From an uncultured Collinsella sp. (lineage in GTDB: Bacteria > Actinomycetota > Coriobacteriia > Coriobacteriales > Coriobacteriaceae), in NCBI GenBank assembly GCA_900541195.1, contig UQIY01000004.1, positions 2,492 through 66,491 on the forward strand: a DNA stretch of 64,000 bases, read 5' to 3'. The notes under the pieces were generated by a model, which saw only the letters and a program-made list of their open reading frames with translations, was not told the origin of the DNA and did not search any database. Shown here in pieces: positions 2,684-20,433 of the stretch (position 1 is the stretch's first letter; every line of letters starts with the position of its first letter). A program made the translations under genes and the position numbers.

Positions 2684-4714
2684 ATGACCGCACCTGCATC
2701 CAAACTGCTTCAGCCCATTACGGTTGGCCCCCTTGAGCTCAAGAACCGCATTATGTTCCCGCCGCTGACCACCGGCTACGAGGAGCGCGACGGCTCCATT
2801 GGCGAGCGCAGCCTGGCTTTTTACGAGCGCTTGGCCCGTGGCGGCGTGAGCTACATCGTCATCGGCGACGTCGCTCCCGTCATGACCGCAAGCCCCACGC
2901 CCAAGCTGGCAACCGACGCCCAGATCCCCACGTTTAAGGCGCTGGCCGACGCCGTCCACAAGCACGGCGCCAAGGTTGCGCTGCAGCTGTTCCACCCCGA
3001 GTACGACGTGCCCGGCGTCGGCCGCATGGTCATGGGCTCCATGGCTGCTGCCAAGGCCGCGCAGGAGGCCAAGGCCGCCGGCGACGAGGAGACCTTTGCC
3101 GCCAAAATGGCCGAGTCCAACGAGATCCGCAAGCAGGCATATGCCAAGCTGCACCACGACATGCAGCACTTTGTGAACGAGGCGAGCGTAGAGCAGCTCA
3201 CCCAGATCAAGGAGGCCATCGCCGCCTCGGCCGCTCGCGCGCAGCAGGCCGGCATCGACGCCATCGAGGTCCACGGCGACCGCCTGGTGGGTTCGCTGTG
3301 CTCGGCCATCCTCAACCAGCGCACCGACGAGTACGGCGGCTCGTTCGAGAACCGCGTCCGCTATGCGCTGGAGGTCGTCGCTGCCATTAAGGAGGCCGCG
3401 CCGCAGCTGATGGTGGAGTACAAGCTCCCTGTGATCATGGAGAACCCCGACGGCACGCCGCGCGGCAAGGGCGGCCTGCAGCCCGACGAGGCCTGCGAAT
3501 TTGCCAAGCTGCTCGAGGGTGCGGGCATCGACATGATCCAGGTTGCACAGGCAAATCACACCGGCAACATGGGCGACACCATTCCGCCCATGGGCGCCAT
3601 GCCCTACAACTGGACGCTACCCGTGGCCGAGCGCGTCAAGGCCCTGGTCTCCGTGCCGGTGGCAACCGTCGGCCGCGTGGTCTCGGTCGAGGCCGGCGAG
3701 AAGATTCTGGAAGACGGCGCGGCCGACATCGTCGCCTATGGCCGCTCGCTCATGTGCGACCCCGACATTGCGCTGAAGGCCGCCACGGGCGAGCCCATTC
3801 GCGAGTGCCTCAACTGCAATAAGGGCTGTGTCGACGCGATTCAAAACCGCAAGTACATCTCGTGCGTGCTTAATGCCGAGAACGGCGACGAGGCGACCAT
3901 CGCCATCAAGCCGGGCGAGGGCGACAAGAAGATCGCCGTGGTGGGCGGCGGTATTGCCGGCCTGGAGGCCGCGCGCGTGGCGGCCAAGCGCGGCTACGAC
4001 GTGACCGTCTACGAGGCGAGCGATCATCTGGGCGGCCAGATTGTGCTGGCGGCCGCGCCTCCGCGCAAGGACGAGATCATGCGCTCGGTCGAGTATTACG
4101 AGATGATTCTGCCCGGCCTGGGCGTGAAGGTTGAGCTCAACCATGCCGCTACCGCCGAGGACCTCAACGCCGCCGACGCCGCGATTGTGGCCGTGGGCGC
4201 GCACGACGTGGTCATTCCCGTTCCGGGTGCCGATTCGGACAAGGTCGTCTCGAGCTGGGACGTGCTGGCCGGCAAGGTGGAGCTTACGGGCCGCGTCGCC
4301 GTCATTGGCGGCGGCCTGGTGGGCACCGAGACTGCCGAGTACCTGCTGCAGCACGGCTGCGAGGTGGCGATCGTGGAGATGCTCGACAAGATTGCCGCGG
4401 GCGAGTCCGAGACCATTCTGCCGCTGATTATGAGCGACTTTGCCGAGCATAACGTGGAGCAGCACGTGAAGACCCGCCTGACCGCCATTACTGATGAGGG
4501 CGTGGAGGCCATTCGCACCACCGAGGACGGCGCCGAGGAGCCGGTGAAGATCGTCTGCGATTACGTGGTGATGGCCGTGGGCTCCAAGGCCAACGCGTTT
4601 GACCTGGACGGCGTGACGGTACCCGTGACCTACGTGGGCGACTGCTCGGGCGAGCGTACCGCCGACATCGCGAGCGCTATCCGCACGGCATATCACGCGG
4701 CTAACGAGCTGTAG
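2684..4714 (+). CDS. NADH:flavin oxidoreductase of the OYE / 2,4-dienoyl-CoA reductase (FadH-like) family
   Basis: 676 aa. The N-terminal OYE TIM-barrel shows LKNRIMFPPL, RGGVSYIVIGD and NQRTDEYGGSFENR. A Cys cluster (CLNCNKGC) follows. The C-terminus has two Rossmann motifs (VVGGGIAGLEAA, VIGGGLVGTE). AGAGAGGA RBS. Confidence 0.85.
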   Translation: MTAPASKLLQPITVGPLELKNRIMFPPLTTGYEERDGSIGERSLAFYERLARGGVSYIVIGDVAPVMTASPTPKLATDAQIPTFKALADAVHKHGAKVALQLFHPEYDVPGVGRMVMGSMAAAKAAQEAKAAGDEETFAAKMAESNEIRKQAYAKLHHDMQHFVNEASVEQLTQIKEAIAASAARAQQAGIDAIEVHGDRLVGSLCSAILNQRTDEYGGSFENRVRYALEVVAAIKEAAPQLMVEYKLPVIMENPDGTPRGKGGLQPDEACEFAKLLEGAGIDMIQVAQANHTGNMGDTIPPMGAMPYNWTLPVAERVKALVSVPVATVGRVVSVEAGEKILEDGAADIVAYGRSLMCDPDIALKAATGEPIRECLNCNKGCVDAIQNRKYISCVLNAENGDEATIAIKPGEGDKKIAVVGGGIAGLEAARVAAKRGYDVTVYEASDHLGGQIVLAAAPPRKDEIMRSVEYYEMILPGLGVKVELNHAATAEDLNAADAAIVAVGAHDVVIPVPGADSDKVVSSWDVLAGKVELTGRVAVIGGGLVGTETAEYLLQHGCEVAIVEMLDKIAAGESETILPLIMSDFAEHNVEQHVKTRLTAITDEGVEAIRTTEDGAEEPVKIVCDYVVMAVGSKANAFDLDGVTVPVTYVGDCSGERTADIASAIRTAYHAANEL

Positions 4715-8032: not shown

Positions 8033-11000
8033 ATGAGAACGGCAAAGCGCATAACAACCGCATGCCTGACTGCGATCATGATTTTCCAGGCGCTTGCGCC
8101 CTCCACGGAGGTGTTCGCGCAAGAGCTCGACGCCGTCATGGAGGCATCCGTCTCCGCCGCGCGCGCCGCGGGCAACACGGCGCGCTCCGTACAGGATGCT
8201 GTGGCCACCGCGCTGCAAGATGCTGACCAGGCTACATCTGATGATGTCGTAACGACTCCGGGCGCCGACGCTGGCGCTACCGAGGGCGGCGACGGTTCTA
8301 CCAACGCTGGCGAATCACAGGACTCCACGACCGATGGAACCACTAACGGCGATACCCCAACGGAGGGCGACGCGTCCCAAGACGATGCGGCTGCCGATGA
8401 GGGTGCTGCTGACGGAGAACAAGCGGATGACGCGGACGCGGATGCTGCTGATCAGGCAAACACCGCCCCCACCATCGCTACTGTCGAGGATCTCAGGCAC
8501 GCGTTGGGTGACGGCAATGTCATCACTGACGACTTGGGCGCCGTCACGGCCATTACCTTTGAGTCCAACGCCGACCTTATCGCCATCTCCAACACCGATC
8601 CCGCCATCTACCAGAACGCGAACATCTCCAAAGGTGGCTCGACCGGCATCGACTTCGACGTGTGCGGCGCGGAGATCGTGGACGGCCTGGGTAGCCTCAC
8701 GTTCCAGGGCTTCGGCAGCGATGCCTACCCTTTCAAAGGCGCGCTCAACCTCGGCGACAGGACCCTGACCGTCAACAAGACGCTCTTCAACAACATCGAG
8801 CTTAGTGACGATAACAGCAGCGTAAAGCTCACTTGGAAGGGCACCGATGCCCAGCCCATAGTGGCCGCAAAGGTCGCGGGCGCGGACAAGACGCTTGCTG
8901 CCACCGTTACCGTGGGCACGCCCAAAAGCGATACCGAAAAGGACATCTGCAAGCTCACCTCGCCGCTTGTGGGCGAGGTCACGGGCGCGCTTACACTTAA
9001 TGCCACCTACACGACAAGCGCGAACAGCCCCCTGGCGGTCGATATGCAATCGAGCGCAGGCAACATGGGCTTGCTTGTGAACACCCTTGCCGAAGGAGCA
9101 TCGCTTACGCTTGCGGGCCTCGCCCTGCCGGACAAACTCGACGGTACCCCCACTATCAACGCGACAGCCGATGGCGCCAACGCAGGAGGCCTTATCGGCG
9201 AGGCGCGGGAGGGTGCCACCGTCGCCCTACCAACTGGCATCGATGTCTCGGCGCTGAGCGTCGCAGGTAAAAACGCGGCGGGCGGTCTTATCGGTAAGGC
9301 CACCAACCTCACGCTCAACATCGCTGATGGCGTAACGGTTAAGCCGGCGTGCAACGTCGGCGATAAAGACAGCGCTTGCTCCGGTGGCGTCATCGGCGAC
9401 GTGAGCTTTGCGCAAGGATTTATCGTTAAGCCCAATATGTTCGACCTGGGCAAGCTTGTGACGCTTGGTGCATCGCAACGCGCCGGCGCCCTTTTTGGTG
9501 TGGCCGATATTTCTAATGGCGACATCGTGGTGCAAGGCGGAACGTATAAGAGCAAGTTCACCTTACCGGAAGGAGTTAGCTTCAACGGCAGCTACGGCGG
9601 CCTTGTCGGCAAGGTGTTTGCGACGGCAAAAGGCGTCGATGAGTCGCTGCGCGCCTTTGTGGTCCAAAAGGATGCGGATAAGAAAACGTGCTCAATTGAG
9701 TTTGAACTTGCGGGCAAGCTGTCCGATACGGGCGGTGTTGTTGGCTATGTTGGCGATAGCGCGGACTCCAATTCGCAGCCTGTCGCCGTTGTGCTCGACG
9801 GCGTGACGGTTGCGTGCAAGGGAGATGCTTCGGCGCGAACGGACGCCGGAAAGTTCGGTGGTGCCGTGGGCGTTGTCGACGCGCGCAATGTCCTTGACGT
9901 GCGAGATTTCAAACTTACAAGCGACAATCCTATCGGTAAGGCGCAAAGCAACCGTGCCGCGGGAATTGCAGGCTCCGCGTGGAATGCTGTAATCAAATTC
10001 AGCGGCATCACGGATCTGTCGGGCGCAAGTTTTGCCGAAAACAGCACGACGGGCCAGCTCGTATACGAGAACCACAACGCGCTGATTTTTGCTGTCGGCG
10101 ATGGCTCTGACGCTGACAAGGGTGCAGCGGGCTGGACCTTCAAACGTAGCAATACTGCCTCGAAGACGGACGACATCGCGACCTACGGCGAAGTTATTCG
10201 TCTGGGCGGCGACTTCATTAAGCTTGATGTGGACACTCATAAGTTGACCTTGCCGGATTCGCTGACGGCAGCTAACGGTGCCTACACCCTAACCTCTGTT
10301 GAGGATTTCGCCAAACTTGCAATCACCTGGCAAACCAACGGCTACTACTCCATGGTCGAGGGCGTTTCCGAAAACAACCCGAACATCTTGCAGTCCTCGA
10401 CCATTACGGTGAACGGCACTATTGATCTCAAGGGCACGGGCCTGACGGGTTTCACGCAGAATCGTGCAGACGGCTCGCAAGTTTTCTCGGGAACGTTGAA
10501 CGGCGGCGGCACAAATGGCAACGGCACAATCAACCTTGCCGTCGGCGAGCCGTACGGCAAGCGTGGTGAAGCTGTGCTCGACGGCAATGACACGAGCAAC
10601 GGCAACGGCAAAATCTACCGCCACGGCCGCTTGGGCTTGTTCGCGGCCGTCAACGGCGCAACCATCTCCAACGTCACAATCGCTGGTTCCATGAAGTTCG
10701 ATAACGGTTCGGCTATCGATGCCGGGTCGCTTGCAGGTACCATCGTCGGCAACCTGCCATTGTCTGGCGTAACGTGCAAAACGAATATCGCGTGTGATGA
10801 TACGTTCGGCAACGAAGTGAACATTGGTGGTATTGCGGGCAGCGTGTCGGCGGCTTCTACGGTTGCGTTTAAGGATAACAGCAGGGCTCAAGCGACCATC
10901 GCTGCAACTAAAACGCTTAACGGCAATAGTCGCATTGGCGGCGCCATTGGTTATGTGGGCGATTATGGCTCGTCATTCAATGTTGCGGGCCTCGAAGTCG

Positions 11001-14000
11001 CCGGATCAATCGAAACCGGCAATTGCACCAGCGGCAAGATTGCCCAGGTCGGTGGCTTTATCGGCTGCATTGCTCAGGGATCGAACGAGAAGAACGTTAC
11101 CATTACCGGTCTTAGCTTTAGTGAATTCGCTATGACCGTGGGCAAGAACGGCGACAAGTTCAACGGCGCCGGTGGTCTTCTGGGCTACAGCTGGGGCAAC
11201 GCCATCGTCACCATTGGCGATACTACTGCGAATACCAGCGGCAGCACCTACGCCCTCAAAACTACCAACAACACGACCGTGACTGCAGAAAACTCTACCG
11301 AGGTCGGCGGCCTCGTATACGCCGCCAGTGGCCACTGGATCATCAATAATTATGCTATCAATTTGGCCAACGCTTCCTTTACCGCTAATAGCGCAACCAC
11401 GCTTGGCGTTCTTATTGCTCGCGGCAGTACATCCGATTCAAATAGCTTTGGTGCCGAGACCAACTATAACGGTCTATATCTGGAGGACAGGGCTTGGTGG
11501 GGTACCGCTTATGCTGTGAATGGCGTGTCTATAACCGCCCCAAAGGTAAAGACATACGACGAATGGCTTGCAAATGGCGTGAAGCCCGAAAGTAATCTGA
11601 TTGATAACGGCTGCAATGCGGTTGTCTCGCTTCATACCGAGGACCAAAAGCTGGACATGAGCGGAGATCCTGCTAGAGATAATAGTTATCGAAATCGCAT
11701 CGCCCCCGCTAATCCTTCTGATAGCTTTCCGCAAACAAATGGTTCTGTTCGCTACTACTACAATCTTGACAAAGCGTATACGGCGGTAGGCAACAAGCCG
11801 GAAAACGCTAGCAAAGACAATTGGATGAACTCCGCAGAGTACTTATTACTTTGGTGTGCGTACCTGTATGCTCCTAGCGCGATTCAGGGCTATATCATTC
11901 CGGGAAATCAGGCTATTTTCCAAGGAAACAATATTGGCACGAGCGACAGCGCGGGCGTGGAAATCAATTTAGATGGATACAGTTTCTATCCTACTGACCC
12001 CGCGAAGGGCTCAACGGTTACTGTGAATAATGCAACGATTACGTTCCATTATTCCGACATTAAAGATGAGCAAGAAGGTAACAAAAAGAATAGCGAAGCC
12101 ACGCAGCACGAAAATATGCACTGCGCTCTCATCGGAACCCATACGGGCAGCCTCAAGGTTAAAAATGTCACGCTTGCAGGCACCGTGGGCTCCGTTGTGA
12201 ACGATGCGGGAAGTTCGTCCGGTGCACTTGTGTGCTGCTGTATCTATGGGCCCATCAATGAGACTAATGTGGCACAGCTCGAGATAGATGGTCTGACACT
12301 TGACGGCTTGAAGGTCGACGGTGTGAACGGCTATACCAGTTACGCCCCTCTGCTTATCAACGAGATGCAGACATGCGTGAACCTGAGCGCTAAGAATATT
12401 TCAACCCTTAGTTACGCGAAAGGGGCCACGGCGGCAACCTCGCTCTTCGGCAGGCTCGGCGTGGGAAACAATTCCGATCAGGTGACGGCGAAGTTTGAGC
12501 AAATCAGCTTGCCCAGCCAAAAGAACAATACGATCTTCACCCATGCGAGCCTGCTGGAGAGTTTTGGCTACGGAAGCACGAGCACGGGTTCTGCGGACTA
12601 CACCTTTACTAAGGCCGATGCCGATGCAGGCAAGGTGACATACGGATCTGAGATTGATGGGAGTACGGAGTACCCGGGCAAGCAGCTTTGGTATTACGAC
12701 GAAGCGACGTATGGTGCCGTGAGCGGCTATGTGACGGTTGATGGTAAGAAGGACGGTGACGTCAGGCCTTGGTTCGGTGACTACCTTCCTTATGTTTACA
12801 AGGGAAAAGCCGCCGAGGATGGCGTCCAGTATCACGAAATTAAAGTCAACCAGCGCATTCCAAAGCTGGTAATGGGATGTGGTACCTACGGCGATCCTTA
12901 TTCCGTCACAAACGCGGCGGAGATGAATGCCATTGCCAACTACATTAATAACATGACGGCGCTTGACGGCTGGGAGGTCACCATTGTCGCCGACCAGGGT
13001 AGGCTCTGCACTCGCCGCAGCAGCGATCACTCGACCGACAATGAGGTTACGTACGTCTACAAGCAGGCGAACGGTACCGATAATAAATGGGAGAAGAAGA
13101 CCGGAGACGCGTCGACCAATTCCCCGCAGACGCTGAGCGACGAAACCATGCACCGCTATATGCAGAGCGCGTATTACAGCATCGAGCCTACTGAGGGCAA
13201 TACGATTACTCTCGACGGCGCATCGTTTGGCGGTTTTGGAAATAGGGCCAACCCGTTTAGGGGCGTCATCGTTGGCAACTTTGGCAGTGATAATAAAAAC
13301 GCAACCATCAAGATAGAGAATAACGAGGGTTCGCTTCGCGGCCTTATTCCCTATAGTTACGGCAGCGTGGTGCGCGATCTGAATATTCGCTATGTGAACG
13401 CGTCGGCGACTATTACTTATTCTGCCAAGGATGCCGACGGCGTTCCGACGGCGTTTTTCGGTGGCGTTGTCGGCTGCATCCTTGGTGGCGATAACATTAT
13501 CGATGGCGTGGTCGTTAATGGGACGACGGCCGAAAACCCTACAACGGGATTTACCGTCACGGGCGGTGGCGACAAGCCGCATCTTGTTCCCATTGGTGGC
13601 TACGTCGGTGCCATTGCGGGTGGCGGCGTGATTTTCCGCAATATGGACAAAAGCGGAAAATCTTCCTGGCGTGCTGGAACTGGTGACAAATCTCGTGGTC
13701 TGGGAAAGGGCAACTTTGATCTCTACAACAATCCCTACGTCGGTCGCGTGATTGATGGCTATGCCTTTAGCGAGGGCTGTAAGGTTGAAAACGGTAACGC
13801 TAACTACCAGATTAACGAGCTCACAAAAAAAGGAACCCCCTGTGTCACCACCACGGGCACCGACAACAAGTACCTCGGCACTAACGCCGAGGCTCCTGTG
13901 ACCATGGTGAAAAACGCCCAGGGCCTTTTGGTGCTCTCGGCCATCATCAGCTCGGGTGCGGGTGCTGGCGCGGCACATACCAACTACTCCAATAATGGCG

Positions 14001-17000
14001 TGTTCCGCGGTTCCAAGGCTTACTGGGGCAGCGATTCGCAAGACCCGGCGATATGCGGCTACCTGTTTGGCAACAAGGAATATGGCAAGGTACGGAATGC
14101 TAACTACGCAAATGTGGGCAAGCCTGAGAGTGCTGCCGGCGATTTCGAAATCGCCAAAAACGACGACCAGAAGGCCCCCGGCAAGCAGGGGTGGCACGGC
14201 CCGCTCGACCATGATGACGATGTAAATTCGCCCTACCTGGTGGCGTCCTACGCTGCCGACTACCAAACGGGCTATGTGTGCGCGTCGAAATCGATCGGCA
14301 TGAGCTTGGAGTTCAAGCAGGGCGACACCTACGATATGACCGACTACGGCACGGGGTACGTGGGCCTAAACGGCCGCTACTATTCCAATGCCTGCAATTC
14401 GAACCAGCCGGGCACCGACCGAGACCGTATTACGCCGCACGTAGCCACGATCGACGGTAACGGCGCCACCATCACGGTGGGTACCGAAGGCACCGCCTAC
14501 GGCGTCGTCGAATACGCCGACGACGACTATAAGGTCTCGGGCGTGGGTGGTCTATTCAGCACCGTGATGTTCACCTCCACCAATGTGGGGCAGAGCGTCA
14601 CCGCGAACGACGGCGCGCAGGTCAAAGACCTCACCTTTAGCAACTGCAACGTAGCGCTCACCTATATCGACACCAACGGCGAAGCCAAACCAGGAGAGGC
14701 GCCGAACGACCTTACCGGTGCCGGCCTTTTGGCGGGTGCAACGGCCAACTACGACGACGGCACGTGCGGCATCTACCGCAACGTGCAGATGAAGAACTGC
14801 ACCGTGTCGGGCGCAAAGAGCGTAGGAGGGCTTCTTGGCAGCTCGGGCCGCGCCAGACGAACTACGAGCGAAGACAGAACCTATATGGTCGAGTTCGGGG
14901 ACGGGTGGGGCCCCGCGTATCTCTATGACTGCTCATACACTGGCCTTAACGTCACGGGCGAGAAGAATGTCGGTGGCTATGTGGGTGCGGTCGCCTCGGC
15001 GTGCGGTGTGTGGACAACCGCAGGCACAGGGGTGAGCGAAAGGACCGTTGGCAAAAACTCGACCATAACTGCCACAGGGACAGTGCCCTACGTGGGCGGC
15101 GTGCTCGGCTATGTCGAAAGAAGCGATATCTCGGTCAACACCAACATCGGCACCACTACAGCGGCCCAGTCGTCGTGCACGGCAGTCATCTCTGGGGTAA
15201 ACGTGCTAGCCACCGGGTCGAACTCCGATGACCATATGGGCGCCGGCGGCGTGGTCGGACGCGCCCGTGGCGGCGTTATTTCTATGAGCAACGTGCGCAT
15301 TGATGGCGGAAACGGCACCGAGAACGCCGTCATCGGCGATAAGGCCGGAACGAACAATAGCATCTACAATGCGGGCGGCCTGATTGGTGAGGTTACGAGT
15401 AGCGGTAGCCCCAACAAGTACTGGTTCGACGACTGCAGTGTCAAGAATGTCAGCATCGCCGGCACCGGCAAATGCTCGGGCGGGCTTATCGGCTACTTCT
15501 TCAGCAATGTGAATATAGCCTGCAACAACATCGCGATCGAGAACGCTACGATTAAGGGTAACTGGAGCGGCGGTCTGCTGGGCGCGAATAACGCGAGTAA
15601 CAGCGGACCCGTCGTCATCGACGTTACCAACACAAAGGTATCCAACACCACGTTTAGCGAAAGGTCCAACGGCGGCATTATGGGCGACGGGCGCGGCCAG
15701 TTCCATCTGTTAAACGTGCTCATGGACAGCAATAGCTACAATGCGGGCAAAACCCAGGGCGTACTCTTGGGCGAGGTTGACACGGGGGATGGTAAGTACA
15801 GCCTTTCCGCAGCGGGCGTGGAAGTAAAGCCCGGTAGTGGCAAGACCACGAGCGACCTGCCGCCGATGGTTTACACGACCAATACGAATACGGCTGCTGT
15901 TAACGAGAAAACTTATATTGCCTTCGGCGACTACAACGGCACGGCTGCCGCGCCCAACGAGAACAAAACGCTTTACGGCGCAGGCGATACTGCTACCACG
16001 GCAACGAGTCCGTACGTGACCACGAGGCCCGTGAGCACGCTGGCGGTGCGTGCCTCCGACGGCGACACCACCGACCGCTACCTGTTTGGCGACGGCGCCG
16101 CCATTGACACCGCGACGACCATCCAAAGCCAAGCGGGTGCCCGCGTTCCCGGCCGCTACACCTACACCAACATCGCCGGCATCAATGATGCCGGCGCATA
16201 CCAAAACACGAGCACCTATAGCGCGGACAGCTCGCGTAGCACCTATAACGCTAACAACATTACTTCGGACAAGAAGGCCAAAACTGACTTCCCCGTGCTC
16301 GTGATTCCGGGCAACGATACCACGACGGTGGAGAGCTACCTGAACATCGTGACCAATGGCGGCTTCTCCGATGCCCGCCGCCTCAACGGCAGCACCGCGC
16401 ATGTGACCGCCACCGCCGAGGTCTTCTCGCTCGCCGATAACGGCACCTTCGTCAAGGACGTAGCCGCCTCGCAAGCGCCCACGCTCAAGGTGCTCAACAA
16501 TGGCACGAGCTCTATGGCATTCCGCGCGAGCACCGACTGGGACAATGAGCAGGGGCGCTTCACGCTGCTTACGGTCACCTTTAGCGAGGCCGGCCAGAGC
16601 TACCGTGTACAGGTACCCATCATCGTCAAGCGCATGCTCGAGATCGACTTTACCGCCACCTACTCCGAAGGTGCGAACTTCAAGGCTGCCGACTATGCGA
16701 CAAAATACGACAAGCACGTACTTGTGAGCAGCGGCGACACCATGACCGGCTACCTTACCTGGACCTATGGCAGCGCTCGGGGCAAGCCGGTCGATTACGG
16801 CTGGAACACGCTGCTCGAAGCCGGCGGCTCTATGGGTCCGCTCAACAAGAGCATTACCTTCGGTGCCACGCTGCCCGAGGGTACACAGCTCACACTCGTG
16901 GACACGGCCAACAACAGCCGCGAATATCACTACACGGTGGGCACGGGCGGCGCGACGTCAGTCAGGCTCACCGAGTTTGTGGACGCTGGCAACAAGGCTT

Positions 17001-18661
17001 ACTACACCGAACCGTGGCTGAGCGAAATCGTGGGCGTGAAGGCCGATGAGGCCAAGGAGGACAAGGACGGCGCTTGGGTCAAGCTCGCCGATGACGAGGT
17101 CAAGGACAAGAGCCAGGCCGAACTCGCGAAGATGGCTGGCGCCAAGGTCGATGGCGCGTACTACCGCGCGCGCACTTCTTCCGACGCGACGGGCACGTTC
17201 TATACCCTCTCCGTTGATAAGGAAGAGCCCAAGAGCGAAAACTTCTACTTGGTGGTGCGCACGCCGGCGGGGTCCGTGGGCGTCAACGGCTACACCGCCA
17301 CCACGGTGGACACGAGCCTCAACGAGCACATCAACTACCTGCTGCGAGGCAAGAAAGCAGCCGACGGCAAGGCTGCCGAGGATGGGCACCAGAATACGCC
17401 CTCGACCTATAGCGTGGCATCAAACTACACGCACAGCCTCGTTGACAACAAGCGTAACCTCGTCGACAACAGGGACAGCATCAACCGGATGGAGCTCAAG
17501 GAAGCCACCTATTCGCTTTCCATGAACGTGAGCGACACCGTGACGTTTGACTCGAGCCAGCAATACACGAGCTCTGACGCGCTGTATTATCAGCTCGATT
17601 CGTCGCTTGTCACCTATCACGATGGCGTCATCGCGGGCTCGGTAGGATACCCCACGGGCACGCAGGGCACGTATGAGTTCTACGTTAAGGTGGGTGATAA
17701 CTACTACACCTGGGGCGGGTCGGGTTGGAATCTGGCCGGCACGAAGGAGACCCCAGTGGTGTCGGGCCTTAGTTGGACTGCGAACGGTGGCGACATGTCA
17801 CTGGTGCTTGCCGATGCTGAGGGTAATCCCATCGACATGTCGGGCCTGCGCGAGATCGCCAAGAACCATGTCAACGCCTTCACCGTTACCATGAGGGCCG
17901 CGCTCACCATGACGGAGCCTGCCTGCCAGGCGGGTATCGTGGCCTCGCAGAACAGCGGCACCGACCGCTACACCAAACCCAACTACCGCGCGTACCTTTC
18001 CACGCATGCCGACACGCTCAGCACCAGTAGCAACTCGGCATACAACGATGGCGGCGCCGGCTACTACCGTATGGATGTGGGCTCATCGACCATCGCGCTC
18101 GAGGCGTCTAAGAAATCCCAGTTGGGCATCAACATCGATGACCTCAAGTCCGCTGACGGCGAGATCGCTCTGGTGGGTACCTACGACCTGAGCAAGCTCA
18201 CGGGCGCCGAGGCTAAGATCGACGCCGCAAGCACGGTGACCTACACGCTGAGCCTGGAGCAGCGGCAAGATAATGGCGGCTATGCTCCGGTCGGCGATAT
18301 CTCGAACTACATTACGGTGCTCGGCAGCGATTACCTAGGCACGGGTGCGGCATCCGCCGACGGCAACAGCTATGTGTTCACCGACACCAAGACCAACGGC
18401 GCGTTCCTCACGCGCGACGGCAACAGCCTTGCCTTTAAGCATGCCTTCCGCGTTAAAGTGAATACGAATGTTGAGGGTGAGAACCAAACTTACGCAAACT
18501 ACCGCTTGGTGCTTACGGCCAATATTATGACCGGCAACGTTGTCGACGACACACCGGTCAACGTTAGCAACCTTGATGGCTATTCGCACTCCGACTACGT
18601 GACGTACACGCTAGCGCGCATCAACACCGAGGGCATTCGGCACGAGACGAAAACCAACTAG
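8033..18661 (+). CDS. Giant (3,542 aa) secreted GLUG-motif / beta-helix-like repeat protein, putative adhesin or surface fibre; no recognisable wall anchor
   Basis: Uninterrupted ORF with a Sec signal (MRTAKRITTACLTAIMIFQALAPSTEVFA-QE), then an acidic D/E/T/G-rich spacer. More than 25 GG[LVI][LVI]G GLUG-like motifs occur (NAGGLIGEA, AAGGLIGKA, GGVIGD, GGLVGKV, VGGLLGSS, GAGGVVGRA and others). A GTYGDPYSVTNAAEMNAI module start is typical of GLUG-domain proteins. There is no C-terminal LPXTG. Confidence 0.85.
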   Translation: MRTAKRITTACLTAIMIFQALAPSTEVFAQELDAVMEASVSAARAAGNTARSVQDAVATALQDADQATSDDVVTTPGADAGATEGGDGSTNAGESQDSTTDGTTNGDTPTEGDASQDDAAADEGAADGEQADDADADAADQANTAPTIATVEDLRHALGDGNVITDDLGAVTAITFESNADLIAISNTDPAIYQNANISKGGSTGIDFDVCGAEIVDGLGSLTFQGFGSDAYPFKGALNLGDRTLTVNKTLFNNIELSDDNSSVKLTWKGTDAQPIVAAKVAGADKTLAATVTVGTPKSDTEKDICKLTSPLVGEVTGALTLNATYTTSANSPLAVDMQSSAGNMGLLVNTLAEGASLTLAGLALPDKLDGTPTINATADGANAGGLIGEAREGATVALPTGIDVSALSVAGKNAAGGLIGKATNLTLNIADGVTVKPACNVGDKDSACSGGVIGDVSFAQGFIVKPNMFDLGKLVTLGASQRAGALFGVADISNGDIVVQGGTYKSKFTLPEGVSFNGSYGGLVGKVFATAKGVDESLRAFVVQKDADKKTCSIEFELAGKLSDTGGVVGYVGDSADSNSQPVAVVLDGVTVACKGDASARTDAGKFGGAVGVVDARNVLDVRDFKLTSDNPIGKAQSNRAAGIAGSAWNAVIKFSGITDLSGASFAENSTTGQLVYENHNALIFAVGDGSDADKGAAGWTFKRSNTASKTDDIATYGEVIRLGGDFIKLDVDTHKLTLPDSLTAANGAYTLTSVEDFAKLAITWQTNGYYSMVEGVSENNPNILQSSTITVNGTIDLKGTGLTGFTQNRADGSQVFSGTLNGGGTNGNGTINLAVGEPYGKRGEAVLDGNDTSNGNGKIYRHGRLGLFAAVNGATISNVTIAGSMKFDNGSAIDAGSLAGTIVGNLPLSGVTCKTNIACDDTFGNEVNIGGIAGSVSAASTVAFKDNSRAQATIAATKTLNGNSRIGGAIGYVGDYGSSFNVAGLEVAGSIETGNCTSGKIAQVGGFIGCIAQGSNEKNVTITGLSFSEFAMTVGKNGDKFNGAGGLLGYSWGNAIVTIGDTTANTSGSTYALKTTNNTTVTAENSTEVGGLVYAASGHWIINNYAINLANASFTANSATTLGVLIARGSTSDSNSFGAETNYNGLYLEDRAWWGTAYAVNGVSITAPKVKTYDEWLANGVKPESNLIDNGCNAVVSLHTEDQKLDMSGDPARDNSYRNRIAPANPSDSFPQTNGSVRYYYNLDKAYTAVGNKPENASKDNWMNSAEYLLLWCAYLYAPSAIQGYIIPGNQAIFQGNNIGTSDSAGVEINLDGYSFYPTDPAKGSTVTVNNATITFHYSDIKDEQEGNKKNSEATQHENMHCALIGTHTGSLKVKNVTLAGTVGSVVNDAGSSSGALVCCCIYGPINETNVAQLEIDGLTLDGLKVDGVNGYTSYAPLLINEMQTCVNLSAKNISTLSYAKGATAATSLFGRLGVGNNSDQVTAKFEQISLPSQKNNTIFTHASLLESFGYGSTSTGSADYTFTKADADAGKVTYGSEIDGSTEYPGKQLWYYDEATYGAVSGYVTVDGKKDGDVRPWFGDYLPYVYKGKAAEDGVQYHEIKVNQRIPKLVMGCGTYGDPYSVTNAAEMNAIANYINNMTALDGWEVTIVADQGRLCTRRSSDHSTDNEVTYVYKQANGTDNKWEKKTGDASTNSPQTLSDETMHRYMQSAYYSIEPTEGNTITLDGASFGGFGNRANPFRGVIVGNFGSDNKNATIKIENNEGSLRGLIPYSYGSVVRDLNIRYVNASATITYSAKDADGVPTAFFGGVVGCILGGDNIIDGVVVNGTTAENPTTGFTVTGGGDKPHLVPIGGYVGAIAGGGVIFRNMDKSGKSSWRAGTGDKSRGLGKGNFDLYNNPYVGRVIDGYAFSEGCKVENGNANYQINELTKKGTPCVTTTGTDNKYLGTNAEAPVTMVKNAQGLLVLSAIISSGAGAGAAHTNYSNNGVFRGSKAYWGSDSQDPAICGYLFGNKEYGKVRNANYANVGKPESAAGDFEIAKNDDQKAPGKQGWHGPLDHDDDVNSPYLVASYAADYQTGYVCASKSIGMSLEFKQGDTYDMTDYGTGYVGLNGRYYSNACNSNQPGTDRDRITPHVATIDGNGATITVGTEGTAYGVVEYADDDYKVSGVGGLFSTVMFTSTNVGQSVTANDGAQVKDLTFSNCNVALTYIDTNGEAKPGEAPNDLTGAGLLAGATANYDDGTCGIYRNVQMKNCTVSGAKSVGGLLGSSGRARRTTSEDRTYMVEFGDGWGPAYLYDCSYTGLNVTGEKNVGGYVGAVASACGVWTTAGTGVSERTVGKNSTITATGTVPYVGGVLGYVERSDISVNTNIGTTTAAQSSCTAVISGVNVLATGSNSDDHMGAGGVVGRARGGVISMSNVRIDGGNGTENAVIGDKAGTNNSIYNAGGLIGEVTSSGSPNKYWFDDCSVKNVSIAGTGKCSGGLIGYFFSNVNIACNNIAIENATIKGNWSGGLLGANNASNSGPVVIDVTNTKVSNTTFSERSNGGIMGDGRGQFHLLNVLMDSNSYNAGKTQGVLLGEVDTGDGKYSLSAAGVEVKPGSGKTTSDLPPMVYTTNTNTAAVNEKTYIAFGDYNGTAAAPNENKTLYGAGDTATTATSPYVTTRPVSTLAVRASDGDTTDRYLFGDGAAIDTATTIQSQAGARVPGRYTYTNIAGINDAGAYQNTSTYSADSSRSTYNANNITSDKKAKTDFPVLVIPGNDTTTVESYLNIVTNGGFSDARRLNGSTAHVTATAEVFSLADNGTFVKDVAASQAPTLKVLNNGTSSMAFRASTDWDNEQGRFTLLTVTFSEAGQSYRVQVPIIVKRMLEIDFTATYSEGANFKAADYATKYDKHVLVSSGDTMTGYLTWTYGSARGKPVDYGWNTLLEAGGSMGPLNKSITFGATLPEGTQLTLVDTANNSREYHYTVGTGGATSVRLTEFVDAGNKAYYTEPWLSEIVGVKADEAKEDKDGAWVKLADDEVKDKSQAELAKMAGAKVDGAYYRARTSSDATGTFYTLSVDKEEPKSENFYLVVRTPAGSVGVNGYTATTVDTSLNEHINYLLRGKKAADGKAAEDGHQNTPSTYSVASNYTHSLVDNKRNLVDNRDSINRMELKEATYSLSMNVSDTVTFDSSQQYTSSDALYYQLDSSLVTYHDGVIAGSVGYPTGTQGTYEFYVKVGDNYYTWGGSGWNLAGTKETPVVSGLSWTANGGDMSLVLADAEGNPIDMSGLREIAKNHVNAFTVTMRAALTMTEPACQAGIVASQNSGTDRYTKPNYRAYLSTHADTLSTSSNSAYNDGGAGYYRMDVGSSTIALEASKKSQLGINIDDLKSADGEIALVGTYDLSKLTGAEAKIDAASTVTYTLSLEQRQDNGGYAPVGDISNYITVLGSDYLGTGAASADGNSYVFTDTKTNGAFLTRDGNSLAFKHAFRVKVNTNVEGENQTYANYRLVLTANIMTGNVVDDTPVNVSNLDGYSHSDYVTYTLARINTEGIRHETKTN

Positions 18662-18670
18662 CTACGCGAG

Positions 18671-18701
18671 GGGCGGCAACCACCCGGTTGCCGCCCTTTT
18701 T
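18671..18701 (+). terminator. Rho-independent terminator of the giant gene
   Basis: Perfect 11-bp stem GGGCGGCAACC / GGTTGCCGCCC, ACCC loop, then TTTTT. Confidence 0.85.
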
Positions 18702-18737
18702 CTTGTTCGCTTGGCCTACTGCTGCCCCAGCTCTCCA

Positions 18738-18826
18738 CCAACTTTCCAGCTTTCCACTTAACTTACCACTCAAGGTGGAAAGCTGGTAAGTTAGGTGGAA
18801 AGCTGGTAAGTTAGGTGGAAAGTTGG
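18738..18826. repeat. Left copy of the repeat array bracketing the Schlafen-like gene
   Basis: It has inverted 12-mers CCAGCTTTCCAC (18746-18757) and GTGGAAAGCTGG (18775-18786) with a 17-nt loop. Direct copies of GTGGAAAG(C/T)TGG follow at 18795 and 18815, a 20-bp period. The 41-bp hairpin core is 40/41 identical to 20354-20394. Confidence 0.85.
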
Positions 18827-18844
18827 AAAGTTGGGAGGTTCGGC

Positions 18845-20314
18845 ATGAATGAGGAGTGGTTGGCGCAGGTTATCCATCATCTGCGGGCAATAGGAAACGA
18901 CACCCAGCAGTACGAAGTAAAAGAAGCCAAGGGCGCGCTCCCCAAAAGCATCGTCGAGACGCTTTCGGCATTTTCCAACGCGCAGGGCGGCTTTATCATC
19001 CTCGGCATTTCCGAAAAGAACGGGTTTATGCCCGTCGAGGGTTTTGATGCCCGCAAGATGCAAGACGCCCTCTCTTCTGCATGTGAAAAGCTGACGCCCG
19101 TTGTGAGGCCGGATATCCAAGTGCTCCCCTTCGAGGGTAAGCTGGTGCTTTGCGCGCGCATCAAAGAAATGCATCCACGCGATAAACCCTGCTATATTGC
19201 GGCACGCGGAATGTACGATTCGTCCTTTATCCGTACGGGCGACGGCGACCGGCGCATGACTCCCTACGAAATCGATCGCTTTATGGAGGAGCATGTTCAG
19301 CCTACATACGACGACGAGCCGGTCGAAGGTGCCACGCTCGATGACCTTGACGCCGATCTTTTGCAAGGGTTTATAAAACGCCAGCGCGAGCTACACCCTA
19401 GGCTTTTGGGCACCAGAAGCGACGATGAGATTCTCCTTGACCTGCATGTGACCAAAAGGGTGGACGACGCAATCGTGCCGACGCTTGCTGCAATTGTCGC
19501 GATGGGACGGTTTCCGCAAAAGTTCTTCCCACGTCTCAATGTGACCTTTACGGCGTACCCCGGGACCACAAAAACGCAGCGAGTAAGTGATAACAAGCGT
19601 TTTGTGGATTCTCAGACCATTTTGGGTCCGATCCCTTTCATGATTGAGGACATGCTTGCCGCCGTTGCGAGAAACACCCGAAACGCAGCGGTTATCGAGG
19701 GCGCGTTCCGGAAAGATGTGCCCGATTATCCGCCCGTGGCGCTGCGCGAGGCGGTGGCGAACGCGCTCATGCACCGCGACTACTCTTCCGCCGCGCGCGG
19801 CTCACAAGTGCAGGTCAACCTGTATATCGACCGCGTCGAGATTCTCAATCCCGGCGGGCTGTACGGCGACGTAACGATCGATTCGCTGGGAGTTTCTGGG
19901 GTTTCGTCATCCAGAAACCAGTTCCTTTCAAATATCCTCGAGACCACGCCGTACCCAGACGGTGGCTACGTGGTCGAAAATCGCGGCACTGGTTATCAGG
20001 AGATAGGTGAGCAGCTCGAGCGGGCAAACATGTTGCCGCCCGAACCAAAGAACTCGACAGTTTCTTTTTCGTTGACGTTCGATAAGCGAAAGATAATGCG
20101 GGCGGAACAGGTGACGTCTGTGGGGCATGTGGACGAGGCAATCTTGGATTACCTGGCAACACATTCTTCGGCCTCGACCAAGGAGCTCACCGACGCTTCG
20201 GGTTTGAGCAGGAGCGCCGTTTCCAACCACATAAAAGGCTTGATTGGTGCGGGCAAGATTGAGGCGATGGAGCCTCCGCGCAGCCCGCGACAACGGTATC
20301 GACTCGCGAAGTAG
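18845..20314 (+). CDS. AlbA_2 (Schlafen-like, 'divergent AAA') + HATPase_c_4 (RecG-C-terminal-like) + C-terminal winged-HTH protein (COG2865 type)
   Basis: I prefer the start at ATG 18845 (MNEEWLAQV), which has GGGAGG 6 nt upstream. The track start GTG 18815 lies inside the repeat. Motifs: ..QQYEVKEAKG..AFSNAQGGFIILGI (AlbA_2), REAVANALMHRDYS...VEILNPGGLYG (HATPase_c_4), and a C-terminal ILDYLATHSSASTKELTDASGLSRSAVSNHIKGL wHTH. Confidence 0.75.
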   Translation: MNEEWLAQVIHHLRAIGNDTQQYEVKEAKGALPKSIVETLSAFSNAQGGFIILGISEKNGFMPVEGFDARKMQDALSSACEKLTPVVRPDIQVLPFEGKLVLCARIKEMHPRDKPCYIAARGMYDSSFIRTGDGDRRMTPYEIDRFMEEHVQPTYDDEPVEGATLDDLDADLLQGFIKRQRELHPRLLGTRSDDEILLDLHVTKRVDDAIVPTLAAIVAMGRFPQKFFPRLNVTFTAYPGTTKTQRVSDNKRFVDSQTILGPIPFMIEDMLAAVARNTRNAAVIEGAFRKDVPDYPPVALREAVANALMHRDYSSAARGSQVQVNLYIDRVEILNPGGLYGDVTIDSLGVSGVSSSRNQFLSNILETTPYPDGGYVVENRGTGYQEIGEQLERANMLPPEPKNSTVSFSLTFDKRKIMRAEQVTSVGHVDEAILDYLATHSSASTKELTDASGLSRSAVSNHIKGLIGAGKIEAMEPPRSPRQRYRLAK

Positions 20315-20342
20315 GGCTGTCCGTCGCCCATGCTTCGGTCTC

Positions 20343-20433
20343 CCAACTTCTGTCCAGCTTTCCACTTAACTTACCACTTAAGGTGGAAAGCTGGAAAGTT
20401 AAGTGGAAAGCTGGAAAGTAAGTGGAAAGCTGA
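20343..20433. repeat. Right copy of the repeat array bracketing the Schlafen-like gene
   Basis: CCAGCTTTCCAC (20354-20365) and GTGGAAAGCTGG (20383-20394) are followed by direct copies at 20403 and 20422. Same architecture and orientation as 18738-18826. Confidence 0.85.

Follow-up and report, generated by a model that had tools for sequence, protein, structure and literature searches.

A single gene for a Schlafen-like protein lies between two near-palindromic repeat arrays in a stretch of 64,000 nucleotides (nt) from an uncultured Collinsella sp. (contig UQIY01000004.1 of assembly GCA_900541195.1; hereafter the window, in whose coordinates positions are given unless a related locus is named). 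The gene, which encodes 489 amino acids (aa), combines a Schlafen domain, a GHKL ATPase domain and a C-terminal winged helix-turn-helix (wHTH) and is referred to here as the Schlatpase-HTH gene. It is the only gene between the arrays, which span 18727-18834 on its left and 20343-20433 on its right. The first-pass annotation of the window had offered three explanations for this structure: a cassette with att-like duplications, operator arrays for the encoded wHTH protein, and a structure prone to recombination through which the gene can be deleted. The intergenic region that bears the left array is limited on its left by the terminator of the upstream gene. The features, from left to right, are the following.

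18668..18699, plus strand: intrinsic terminator of the upstream 3542-aa gene, with a 14-bp stem and a T run; also present at the empty sites described below.
18727..18768, minus strand: left arm of the left array, with reverse CTTNCCA-type units and 12-mers at 18727-18738 and 18746-18757.
18775..18834, plus strand: right arm of the left array, with three 20-nt units (GTGGAAAGCTGGTAAGTTAG) that equal six forward TGGNAAG heptamers.
18845..20314, plus strand: Schlatpase-HTH gene, 489 aa, assigned from Pfam domains, invariant residues and fold matches.
20343..20376, minus strand: left arm of the right array, with reverse units including CCAGCTTTCCAC at 20354-20365.
20383..20433, plus strand: right arm of the right array, with five forward heptamers (GTGGAAAGCTGGAAAGTTAA, GTGGAAAGCTGGAAAGTAA, GTGGAAAGCTGA).

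Each array is a near-palindrome of TGGNAAG heptamers in which a few leftward units are followed by more rightward units; there are three of the former and six of the latter in the left array, and two and five in the right array. The identity of 40 out of 41 nucleotides between 18746-18786 and 20354-20394 recorded in the first-pass annotation was reproduced, as were its inverted pair of 12-mers, CCAGCTTTCCAC and GTGGAAAGCTGG, which lie 17 nt apart in both arrays, and its further direct copies at 18795, 18815, 20403 and 20422, spaced by 19-20 nt; the copies at 18815 and 20422 each carry one mismatch. The left array is real but begins slightly further left than had been recognized, at 18727. Its last, degenerate units abut the ribosome-binding site, the Shine-Dalgarno sequence GGGAGG at 18833-18838, in agreement with the earlier remark that a left-hand copy had drifted into this region. 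The N-termini of 16 homologues align with the ATG at 18845, which lies seven nucleotides further on and is the true start codon, in place of the GTG at 18815. Since the array ends at the ribosome-binding site, the transcription start must fall within or upstream of the array; the RNA-labelled runs contain low-depth contigs without direction and give neither the transcription start nor the 3' end. In Bifidobacterium, the array sits ~115 nt upstream of the start codon.

The repeats stand far above chance. With at most one mismatch, GTGGAAAGCTGG is matched nine times in the window, always within the two arrays, whereas 0.19 matches are expected from dinucleotide shuffles, and none of 100 shuffles reached nine. 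A repeat finder returned an 80-nt direct repeat, in which 18735-18814 recurs at 20343-20422 with 89% identity, and Tandem Repeats Finder a 20-nt period with 3.0 copies on the left (95% matches) and 2.8 copies on the right. At the equivalent locus L141, the flank-to-flank local alignment scored 120 vs. at most 24 in shuffles. Units pooled from ten loci (127 in all) gave the consensus AG[G/C]TGGNAAG[T/C]T, and of the 95 start-to-start distances between adjacent units (10 loci), 92 were 8, 11 or 12 nt; 20 nt per pair of units amounts to about one helical turn per unit. The downstream array is a true direct copy, as its polarity with respect to the gene is that of the upstream array. Strains differ in the number of 20-nt units, which ranges from 2 to 4 per array.

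Domain searches bear out the earlier description of a single Schlafen-like gene between the arrays. The open reading frame contains SLFN_AlbA_2 (PF04326) at residues 20-139 (E = 1.6e-15), the GHKL ATPase domain HATPase_c_4 (PF13749) at residues 319-412 (E = 5.5e-21) and a wHTH at residues 430-489, with matches to HTH_24, HTH_5 and MarR at 430-480. Four motifs are invariant in 17 homologues: D19-x4-E24-x-K26, REAxxNAxxHRDY, NPGGL and, in the C-terminal wing, QRYR. The Schlafen active-site string reads D19-TQQY-E24-V-K26, so that its first acidic residue is Asp, not Glu, and residues E302 and N306 of the GHKL N-box are invariant within REAxxNAxxHRDY. The conservation of D19/E24/K26, of the N-box and of NPGGL suggests that both enzymatic domains are intact. 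The AlphaFold2 model has a mean predicted local distance difference test (pLDDT) value of 65, with values <50 over most of the GHKL region (residues 336-427) and of 82-86 over most of the wHTH; it is reliable in the Schlafen and wHTH domains alone and was used only for domain-level fold matches. In Foldseek, the Schlafen part matched DIP2311 (3lmm), the N-domains of SLFN13, SLFN5 and SLFN11, and 2kyy, and the wHTH part matched ArsR/MarR wHTHs and the centromere-binding protein AspA of pNOB8. PADLOC aligned residues 18-424 to the prokaryotic Argonaute (pAgo) model PDLC02394 (E = 3.8e-16).

The protein is thus an ordinary member of a known, very large family. The 'HisKinase-HTH' class makes up 19.2% of 5,930 prokaryotic Schlafens and was not among the architectures tried for defence (Nat Microbiol 2026, PMC13056530). 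The 'Schlatpase' supra-domain, in which SLFN is combined with a GHKL ATPase, occurs in 58.6% of 103,533 prokaryotic SLFN proteins, and an HTH is found in >90% of the C-terminal tails of Schlatpases (bioRxiv 10.64898/2026.05.29.728809). The protein of the window shares with this class the order SLFN_AlbA_2, GHKL (HATPase_c_4), HTH, the acidic-x4-E-x-K motif at the Schlafen active-site position and the single-gene unit, but differs from it in the Asp that replaces the first Glu of the motif and in the lack of a recognizable defence island. Neither these two papers nor the other literature found mentions repeat arrays around Schlatpase-HTH genes. What is new is the repeat array, conserved and specific to the subfamily, that accompanies the gene on one side or on both.

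Arrays of this kind accompany homologues in other genera. Every one of the homologues examined first is flanked by palindromic arrays on both sides, namely those with 75% (Eggerthellaceae-like contig), 69% (metagenomic locus L011), 66% (Collinsella intestinalis) and 64% (Bifidobacterium thermophilum) identity, and all of them lie between unrelated housekeeping genes. A metagenome scan returned 80 loci, among which the near-identical Collinsella locus was reduced to one or two representatives and 55 had scorable flanks. Alignment of the upstream with the downstream flank scored 81-149, compared with at most 30 after shuffling, in nearly all homologues with at least 53% identity and in some near 50%. 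When repetition was defined as a 6-mer occurring on either strand at least 5 times per 130 nt, it was found upstream in 24 and downstream in 11 of 43 loci vs. 3 of 614 control windows. The two-sided loci among those scanned for named units share the polarity (<<< >>>) gene (<<< >>>). On the protein tree, the two-array state fills the actinobacterial clade to which the window belongs, except for L168, and is also found in two further clades. L168, a close relative of two-sided loci, has two upstream arrays (~2260-2310 and 2400-2460) instead of one on each side. Tandem upstream arrays, instead of or besides the two-sided arrangement, are seen at L168, L211 and L215 (1636-1681 and 1746-1792). Among the homologue clusters there are many Logan contigs of 1.59-1.80 kb, a size that fits assembly breaks at flanking repeats and thereby provides indirect support for them.

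Short palindromic repeats are common in bacterial intergenic regions, and a 34% homologue of Acetoanaerobium is bracketed by a different palindrome of ~130 nt that resembles repetitive extragenic palindromic (REP) sequences or miniature inverted-repeat transposable elements (MITEs). That the arrays are likewise a generic, genome-wide repeat which brackets the gene by chance and has no functional link to it is nevertheless scarcely credible. The two arrays are the only places in the 64 kb where the motif is clustered, and the 31-mer shared by them is present exactly twice per genome in one isolate. In 17 related loci and the window, where the units were named and the whole stretch was scanned, every cluster of at least three units lies directly beside the gene. 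A genome-wide pattern scan placed the Collinsella matches among those listed all at this one locus; the scan of genome contigs yielded at least 120 stretches, outside Collinsella mostly unrelated simple repeats, and provides no genome-wide counts. The repeat sequence, moreover, changes with the protein subfamily. The Acetoanaerobium locus (L231, Acetoanaerobium noterae, NZ_CP154629.1) is without heptamer arrays; its REP/MITE-like palindrome (AATCAAGAGGGACGGTTCTTTTTGA ... TCAAAAAGAACCGYCCCT) lies at 1200-1340 and 3040-3170, and the sequence record is labelled a plasmid yet measures 2.63 Mb.

The units and the loci at which they occur are listed here.

TGGNAAG: the group of the window, L011, L017 and L172.
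ATGGAAAG: L015 and L177.
TGCGAAGTT / TGTTAAGTT: L167 and L169.
TAGTCAAATAG: L179.
GAATAAGT: L181 and L194.
TTGAGAGYT: L189.
GCACTCTTC: L215.
GTGTTGTGTAGA: L218 and L211.
GCTTTCAT, in ten direct copies without an inverted arm: L185.
AACTAG: L190.

Wherever two arrays exist, both carry the identical unit type. The recognition helix of the wHTH varies in parallel with the unit: ..SNH.. or ..SSH.. is found with AAGTT-type units, ..KY.. with ATAAGT and ..RR.. with GTGTTGTG. That unit and recognition helix change together strongly suggests, at the level of sequence comparison, cognate protein-DNA pairs. The arrays are accordingly read here as DNA sites of the protein encoded between them, a reading that we consider fairly probable and that makes the operator arrays the best supported of the three initial options, on comparative evidence. 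What the family has in common is a series of short, phased units, a feature that points to the binding of double-stranded DNA.

The inverted arrangement that is kept in most subfamilies admits a different interpretation, in which the arrays act as single-stranded hairpins in RNA or DNA rather than as double-stranded binding sites. They could form a structure in the 5' untranslated region (UTR) and, downstream, a terminator without a U-tract or an insulator that would shield a toxic gene from read-through, or they could be stem substrates or regulators of the Schlafen RNase domain. Stems of ~40 bp are predicted for the left, right and solo arrays (the last from the empty sites described below), with energies of -67.4, -49.5 and -68.8 kcal/mol and z values of -8.2, -6.7 and -9.3 vs. 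shuffles. A terminator scan detected nothing in the arrays and no other terminator 3' of the gene. Schlafen domains, as exemplified by SLFN13 and SLFN11, clamp base-paired RNA, and the fold of the protein matches SLFN N-domains. The pattern of substitutions argues against a conserved stem: among 26 distinct Collinsella arrays, the right arm shows no variation while substitutions in the left arm break pairs without compensation, and in either pairing register all measures of covariation equal those obtained after shuffling. The two arms differ in size (3 vs. 6 units) and changes in copy number affect one arm only. As one subfamily has ten direct units and no inverted arm, the hairpin is not the common denominator. 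A terminator, furthermore, need not match the upstream unit subfamily by subfamily, and Rfam returned only sub-threshold matches to microRNA-like hairpins. We regard the hairpin as unlikely to account for the arrays. A role as terminator or UTR element is possible and may coexist with protein binding, because the stems are strong and no other terminator follows the gene.

The history of the locus can be followed within the genus. The flanks of the window match Collinsella genomes at 91-99% identity, with the best match in the metagenome-assembled genome of a Collinsella sp. behind L052 (99.2%), and all gene copies with 89-100% protein identity occupy this same locus. In at least eight species-level Collinsella genomes, the locus contains one array and no gene (L027, which is C. 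aerofaciens, L065, L072, L086, L090, L094, L103 and L110; also L070 and L026). Empty sites with a single copy of the repeat, for which the first-pass annotation had advised a search in related strains, are thus present in related Collinsella. They keep the terminator region of the giant upstream gene and the downstream sequence, including a remnant of an insertion sequence (IS). In the solo array, the left flank and the left arm of the left array are joined to the right arm and the right flank of the right array. This structure is the expected product of recombination between the arrays or, equally, the target of an integration.

Integration would make the gene a mobile one-gene cassette. A circle carrying the gene and one array would insert site-specifically into a solo array, which would serve as an attB-like site, to generate two hybrid arrays, and excision would restore the empty site. 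Empty sites with exactly one hybrid array do occur at the same locus in related species, and, in formal terms, such an integration would yield the two-array structure as its reciprocal product; an empty site with a single att-like array fits an element bounded by attL and attR, but simple deletion predicts the same. The GC content of the gene (0.53-0.58) is slightly below that of its flanks (0.60-0.63), the unit is found in different neighbourhoods in different genera, and at L209 and L216 the genes are 87% identical whereas the downstream flanks do not match. A machinery for mobility was, however, not recognized: from window position 597 to ~25,300 there is no recombinase, transposase or integrase gene, and Pfam and PADLOC domain searches found no known recombinase domain in the 489-aa protein. 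The copies with 89-100% identity are all at one locus, and gene pairs with at least 84% nucleotide identity and usable flanks share these flanks, with L209/L216 as the exception. Viral and plasmid collections contain only distant relatives, with 22-34% identity, and carriage by a plasmid or phage was discarded for this reason. In an isolate run, the depth was 255, 254 and 259 for flank, gene and flank, the array-shared 31-mer had a depth of 500, equal to two copies per genome, and the Logan contigs included no junction contigs. At the level of contigs, this one isolate thus shows no excised circle, for which PCR or long-read checks had been advised at the outset, but rare circles may escape notice in contigs. 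There is no target-site duplication outside the arrays, and many relatives have an upstream array only, which the cassette model neither needs nor predicts. The cassette with att-like duplications must be judged improbable. The first-pass annotation had also taken the neighbouring IS remnant as a sign of a mobile history, an argument that does not hold, since the empty sites contain this IS3-like orfA remnant as well.

Logan contigs of 1637 nt with identical ends (L008; runs X4 and X14) looked like excised circles but are an assembly effect, because the first right-arm unit of both arrays is equal in most strains and creates a shared 31-mer. Nor does the locus bear the signs of an IS, a MITE or a composite transposon: the arrays are direct, not inverted, no duplication lies outside them and no transposase is present. 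With integron cassettes (attC - gene - attC) it shares a single gene between imperfect palindromes of 60-110 nt in direct orientation and empty sites that carry one copy. It differs from integron cassettes in that the genes called within ~18 kb on the upstream side and 5 kb on the downstream side include no integrase, that the arrays enclose a single gene, and that the palindromes consist of tandem units specific to the gene family. A further difference, which also sets it apart from att-flanked integrative elements, is that the gene is found at high identity in no other array or locus, apart from L209/L216 (87%). Strings resembling the attC core RYYYAAC/GTTRRRY, ACTTAAC and GTTAGGT, do occur, as part of every repeated unit, and are not diagnostic because the match follows from the unit sequence.

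Recombination can act on two direct repeats of ~90 nt at a distance of 1.6 kb, whereby the gene is removed and a single hybrid array stays behind. The related loci with one hybrid array and no gene directly support the deletion-prone structure among the three initial options. The likeness is to the loss of retroelements that leaves solo long terminal repeats, in that the empty alleles are exactly left-arm/right-arm hybrids; the repeats of this locus, however, are not the ends of a retroelement. On a tree of 1.3 kb of the downstream flank, occupied and empty genomes are interleaved. Several distinct solo-array alleles exist, the L027-type allele being common to two flank clades, and the 75% homologue likewise sits after a homologous giant gene. 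The interleaved states, the position of the 75% homologue and the several solo alleles make recurrent loss the more economical explanation. Its support is weak because the flank tree is short and recombination blurs it, and the direction, loss of the gene rather than gain, is only weakly indicated. Apart from deletion, the gene is also disappearing through decay: in L162, L163 and L175, the sequence equivalent to 18845-20314 is truncated or frameshifted to 416, 67 and 342 aa, and the 342-aa form constitutes cluster P0069 with 11 members.

A contig labelled Treponemataceae bacterium (L081, CAVCKO010000036.1) is 93% identical to the window over 6 kb that include the gene and both arrays; it is probably a mis-binned or mislabelled Collinsella contig and not a case of transfer to a spirochaete. 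Some Collinsella alleles contain a MITE-like insert of ~260 nt with the terminal inverted repeats GGACAGTTAGTTCAGATACGTAT ... ATACGTATCTGAACTAACTGTCC (L166, 2150-2390; also L153, L159, L070 and L026). It sits immediately to the left of the left or solo array and is absent from the window, where it would be located at ~18705-18728.

Among known repeat-binding systems, the closest functional analogue, judged by likeness, would be the heptad operator/centromere array to which the omega repressor of plasmid pSM19035 binds (PMC9499535, PMC3074150); ParR-parC and plasmid iterons bear a looser likeness. The locus shares with the omega heptads several contiguous short units of 7-12 nt in direct and inverted orientation, their phasing with the DNA helix and their placement at what would be the promoter of the gene that encodes the presumed binding protein. 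Cooperative binding as a nucleoprotein filament would be a further common trait, that step being presumed for the Schlatpase-HTH protein. The omega repressor is a small ribbon-helix-helix protein, whereas the candidate binder of the window is a fusion of a wHTH with a nuclease-like domain and a GHKL ATPase; in the window, moreover, a single gene has arrays on both of its sides. The difference in DNA-binding fold, together with the chromosomal location and the lack of a ParA partner, places the locus outside the omega family.

If the arrays are the sites of the encoded protein, regulation might proceed in the following way. The C-terminal wHTH would bind the units cooperatively as an oligomer. 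Since the upstream array ends at the ribosome-binding site, its occupancy should shut off transcription of the gene itself, and this autorepression may hold down the amount of a potentially toxic Schlafen RNase. The downstream array could provide a second anchoring site, such that ATP-driven oligomerization of the GHKL domain would bridge both sites into a loop of ~1.6 kb; alternatively, the bound downstream array might act as a roadblock or terminator. Recombination between the arrays, which deletes the gene and leaves one hybrid array, would be a side effect of this arrangement.

Several observations weigh against the assignment of the arrays to the encoded protein. The link between recognition helix and unit is partly confounded by common descent and is unclean at the level of single residues, and for this reason it is a suggestion rather than a proof. 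Many homologues near 50% identity carry an upstream array only; the family can thus do without the downstream copy, whose role in a loop or as a roadblock is a matter of pure inference. A scan for sigma-70 promoters found nothing in the arrays. The solo arrays at the empty sites stay intact without the gene, which implies that the loss is recent, that a paralogue binds them or that they have another function. Finally, the left arrays of Collinsella are 90-97% like the left arrays of other species but 80-92% like the right array of their own locus. Homogenization of the left and right arrays over short times is accordingly weak, and short-term concerted evolution of the two, considered for Collinsella, is not seen, although a few variants are common to both arrays of one strain (TTAACAC and a GCTGGGT[A/G]GAAAG unit).

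A bolder proposal starts from the SLFN-pAgo antiphage system (RzAgo), with which the protein shares the SLFN and GHKL module. In that system, the module tetramerizes upon ATP binding, and nucleic-acid-templated filaments hold the nuclease inactive (bioRxiv 10.64898/2026.05.29.728809). It is a precedent for ATP-driven oligomerization and for an inactive nuclease held in a filament, but it has an Argonaute core that the Schlatpase-HTH protein lacks; the putative reader here is a sequence-specific wHTH on double-stranded DNA repeats in the host chromosome. By analogy with the guide-RNA filaments that lock SLFN-pAgo, the arrays might serve as a scaffold that stores Schlatpase-HTH at its own locus as an ordered, nuclease-inactive oligomer or loop, from which a trigger would release or rearrange the protein and thereby switch on tRNA cleavage. 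Phage infection, DNA damage or a change in supercoiling may be envisaged as triggers. We hold this storage function to be doubtful.

The genes that surround the locus provide no hint of defence. The neighbours comprise the 3542-aa, surface-protein-like gene upstream and, 3' of the right array, a stretch of lower GC with the IS3-like orfA remnant, as well as hydrogenase/complex-I-like genes and genes for a flavin mononucleotide (FMN) oxidoreductase and a PP2C protein. A PADLOC scan of six neighbour proteins, which left out the product of the giant gene, recognized no defence island; the sole match, of the nucleotide-binding segment of the FMN oxidoreductase to a desaturase-type model, is not related to defence. 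Location in a defence island is typical of pSlfn genes (69.6%) but not obligatory (PMC13056530). The 3542-aa gene (8033-18661) is without Pfam domains and has strongly divergent alleles among Collinsella, including L026, L153 and L159; the C-terminal parts are 67-99% identical at the nucleotide level, and a distinct allele ends in ...TLTRVNLNGIDH. Its product is probably a variable surface protein.

The window contains another array, at 2086-2545, with six tandem units of ~80 nt, each of which is an inverted repeat TCTCGATCTGTAACA-N22-TGTTACAGATCGAGA. It follows directly after a tRNA-like gene (~1925-2000) with its terminator and precedes a gene (2684-4714) for an FMN/pyridine-nucleotide oxidoreductase. 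Its appearance is that of a further multi-site operator or of a recombination-arm array.

For Collinsella, deletion between the repeats together with pseudogenization explains why the gene is patchily present among closely related gut strains, and the flanking repeats explain why k-mer assemblies deliver such genes as separate contigs of ~1.6 kb. Schlatpase-HTH proteins are the most abundant class of prokaryotic Schlafens and number tens of thousands. If the arrays are their cognate sites, every such gene would bring along its own predicted DNA ligand, with which binding, autoregulation, oligomerization on DNA and control of the nuclease become directly testable. Should the storage of an inactive nuclease on the arrays prove true, the commonest class of bacterial Schlafens would be DNA-tethered immune sensors with a defined DNA ligand.

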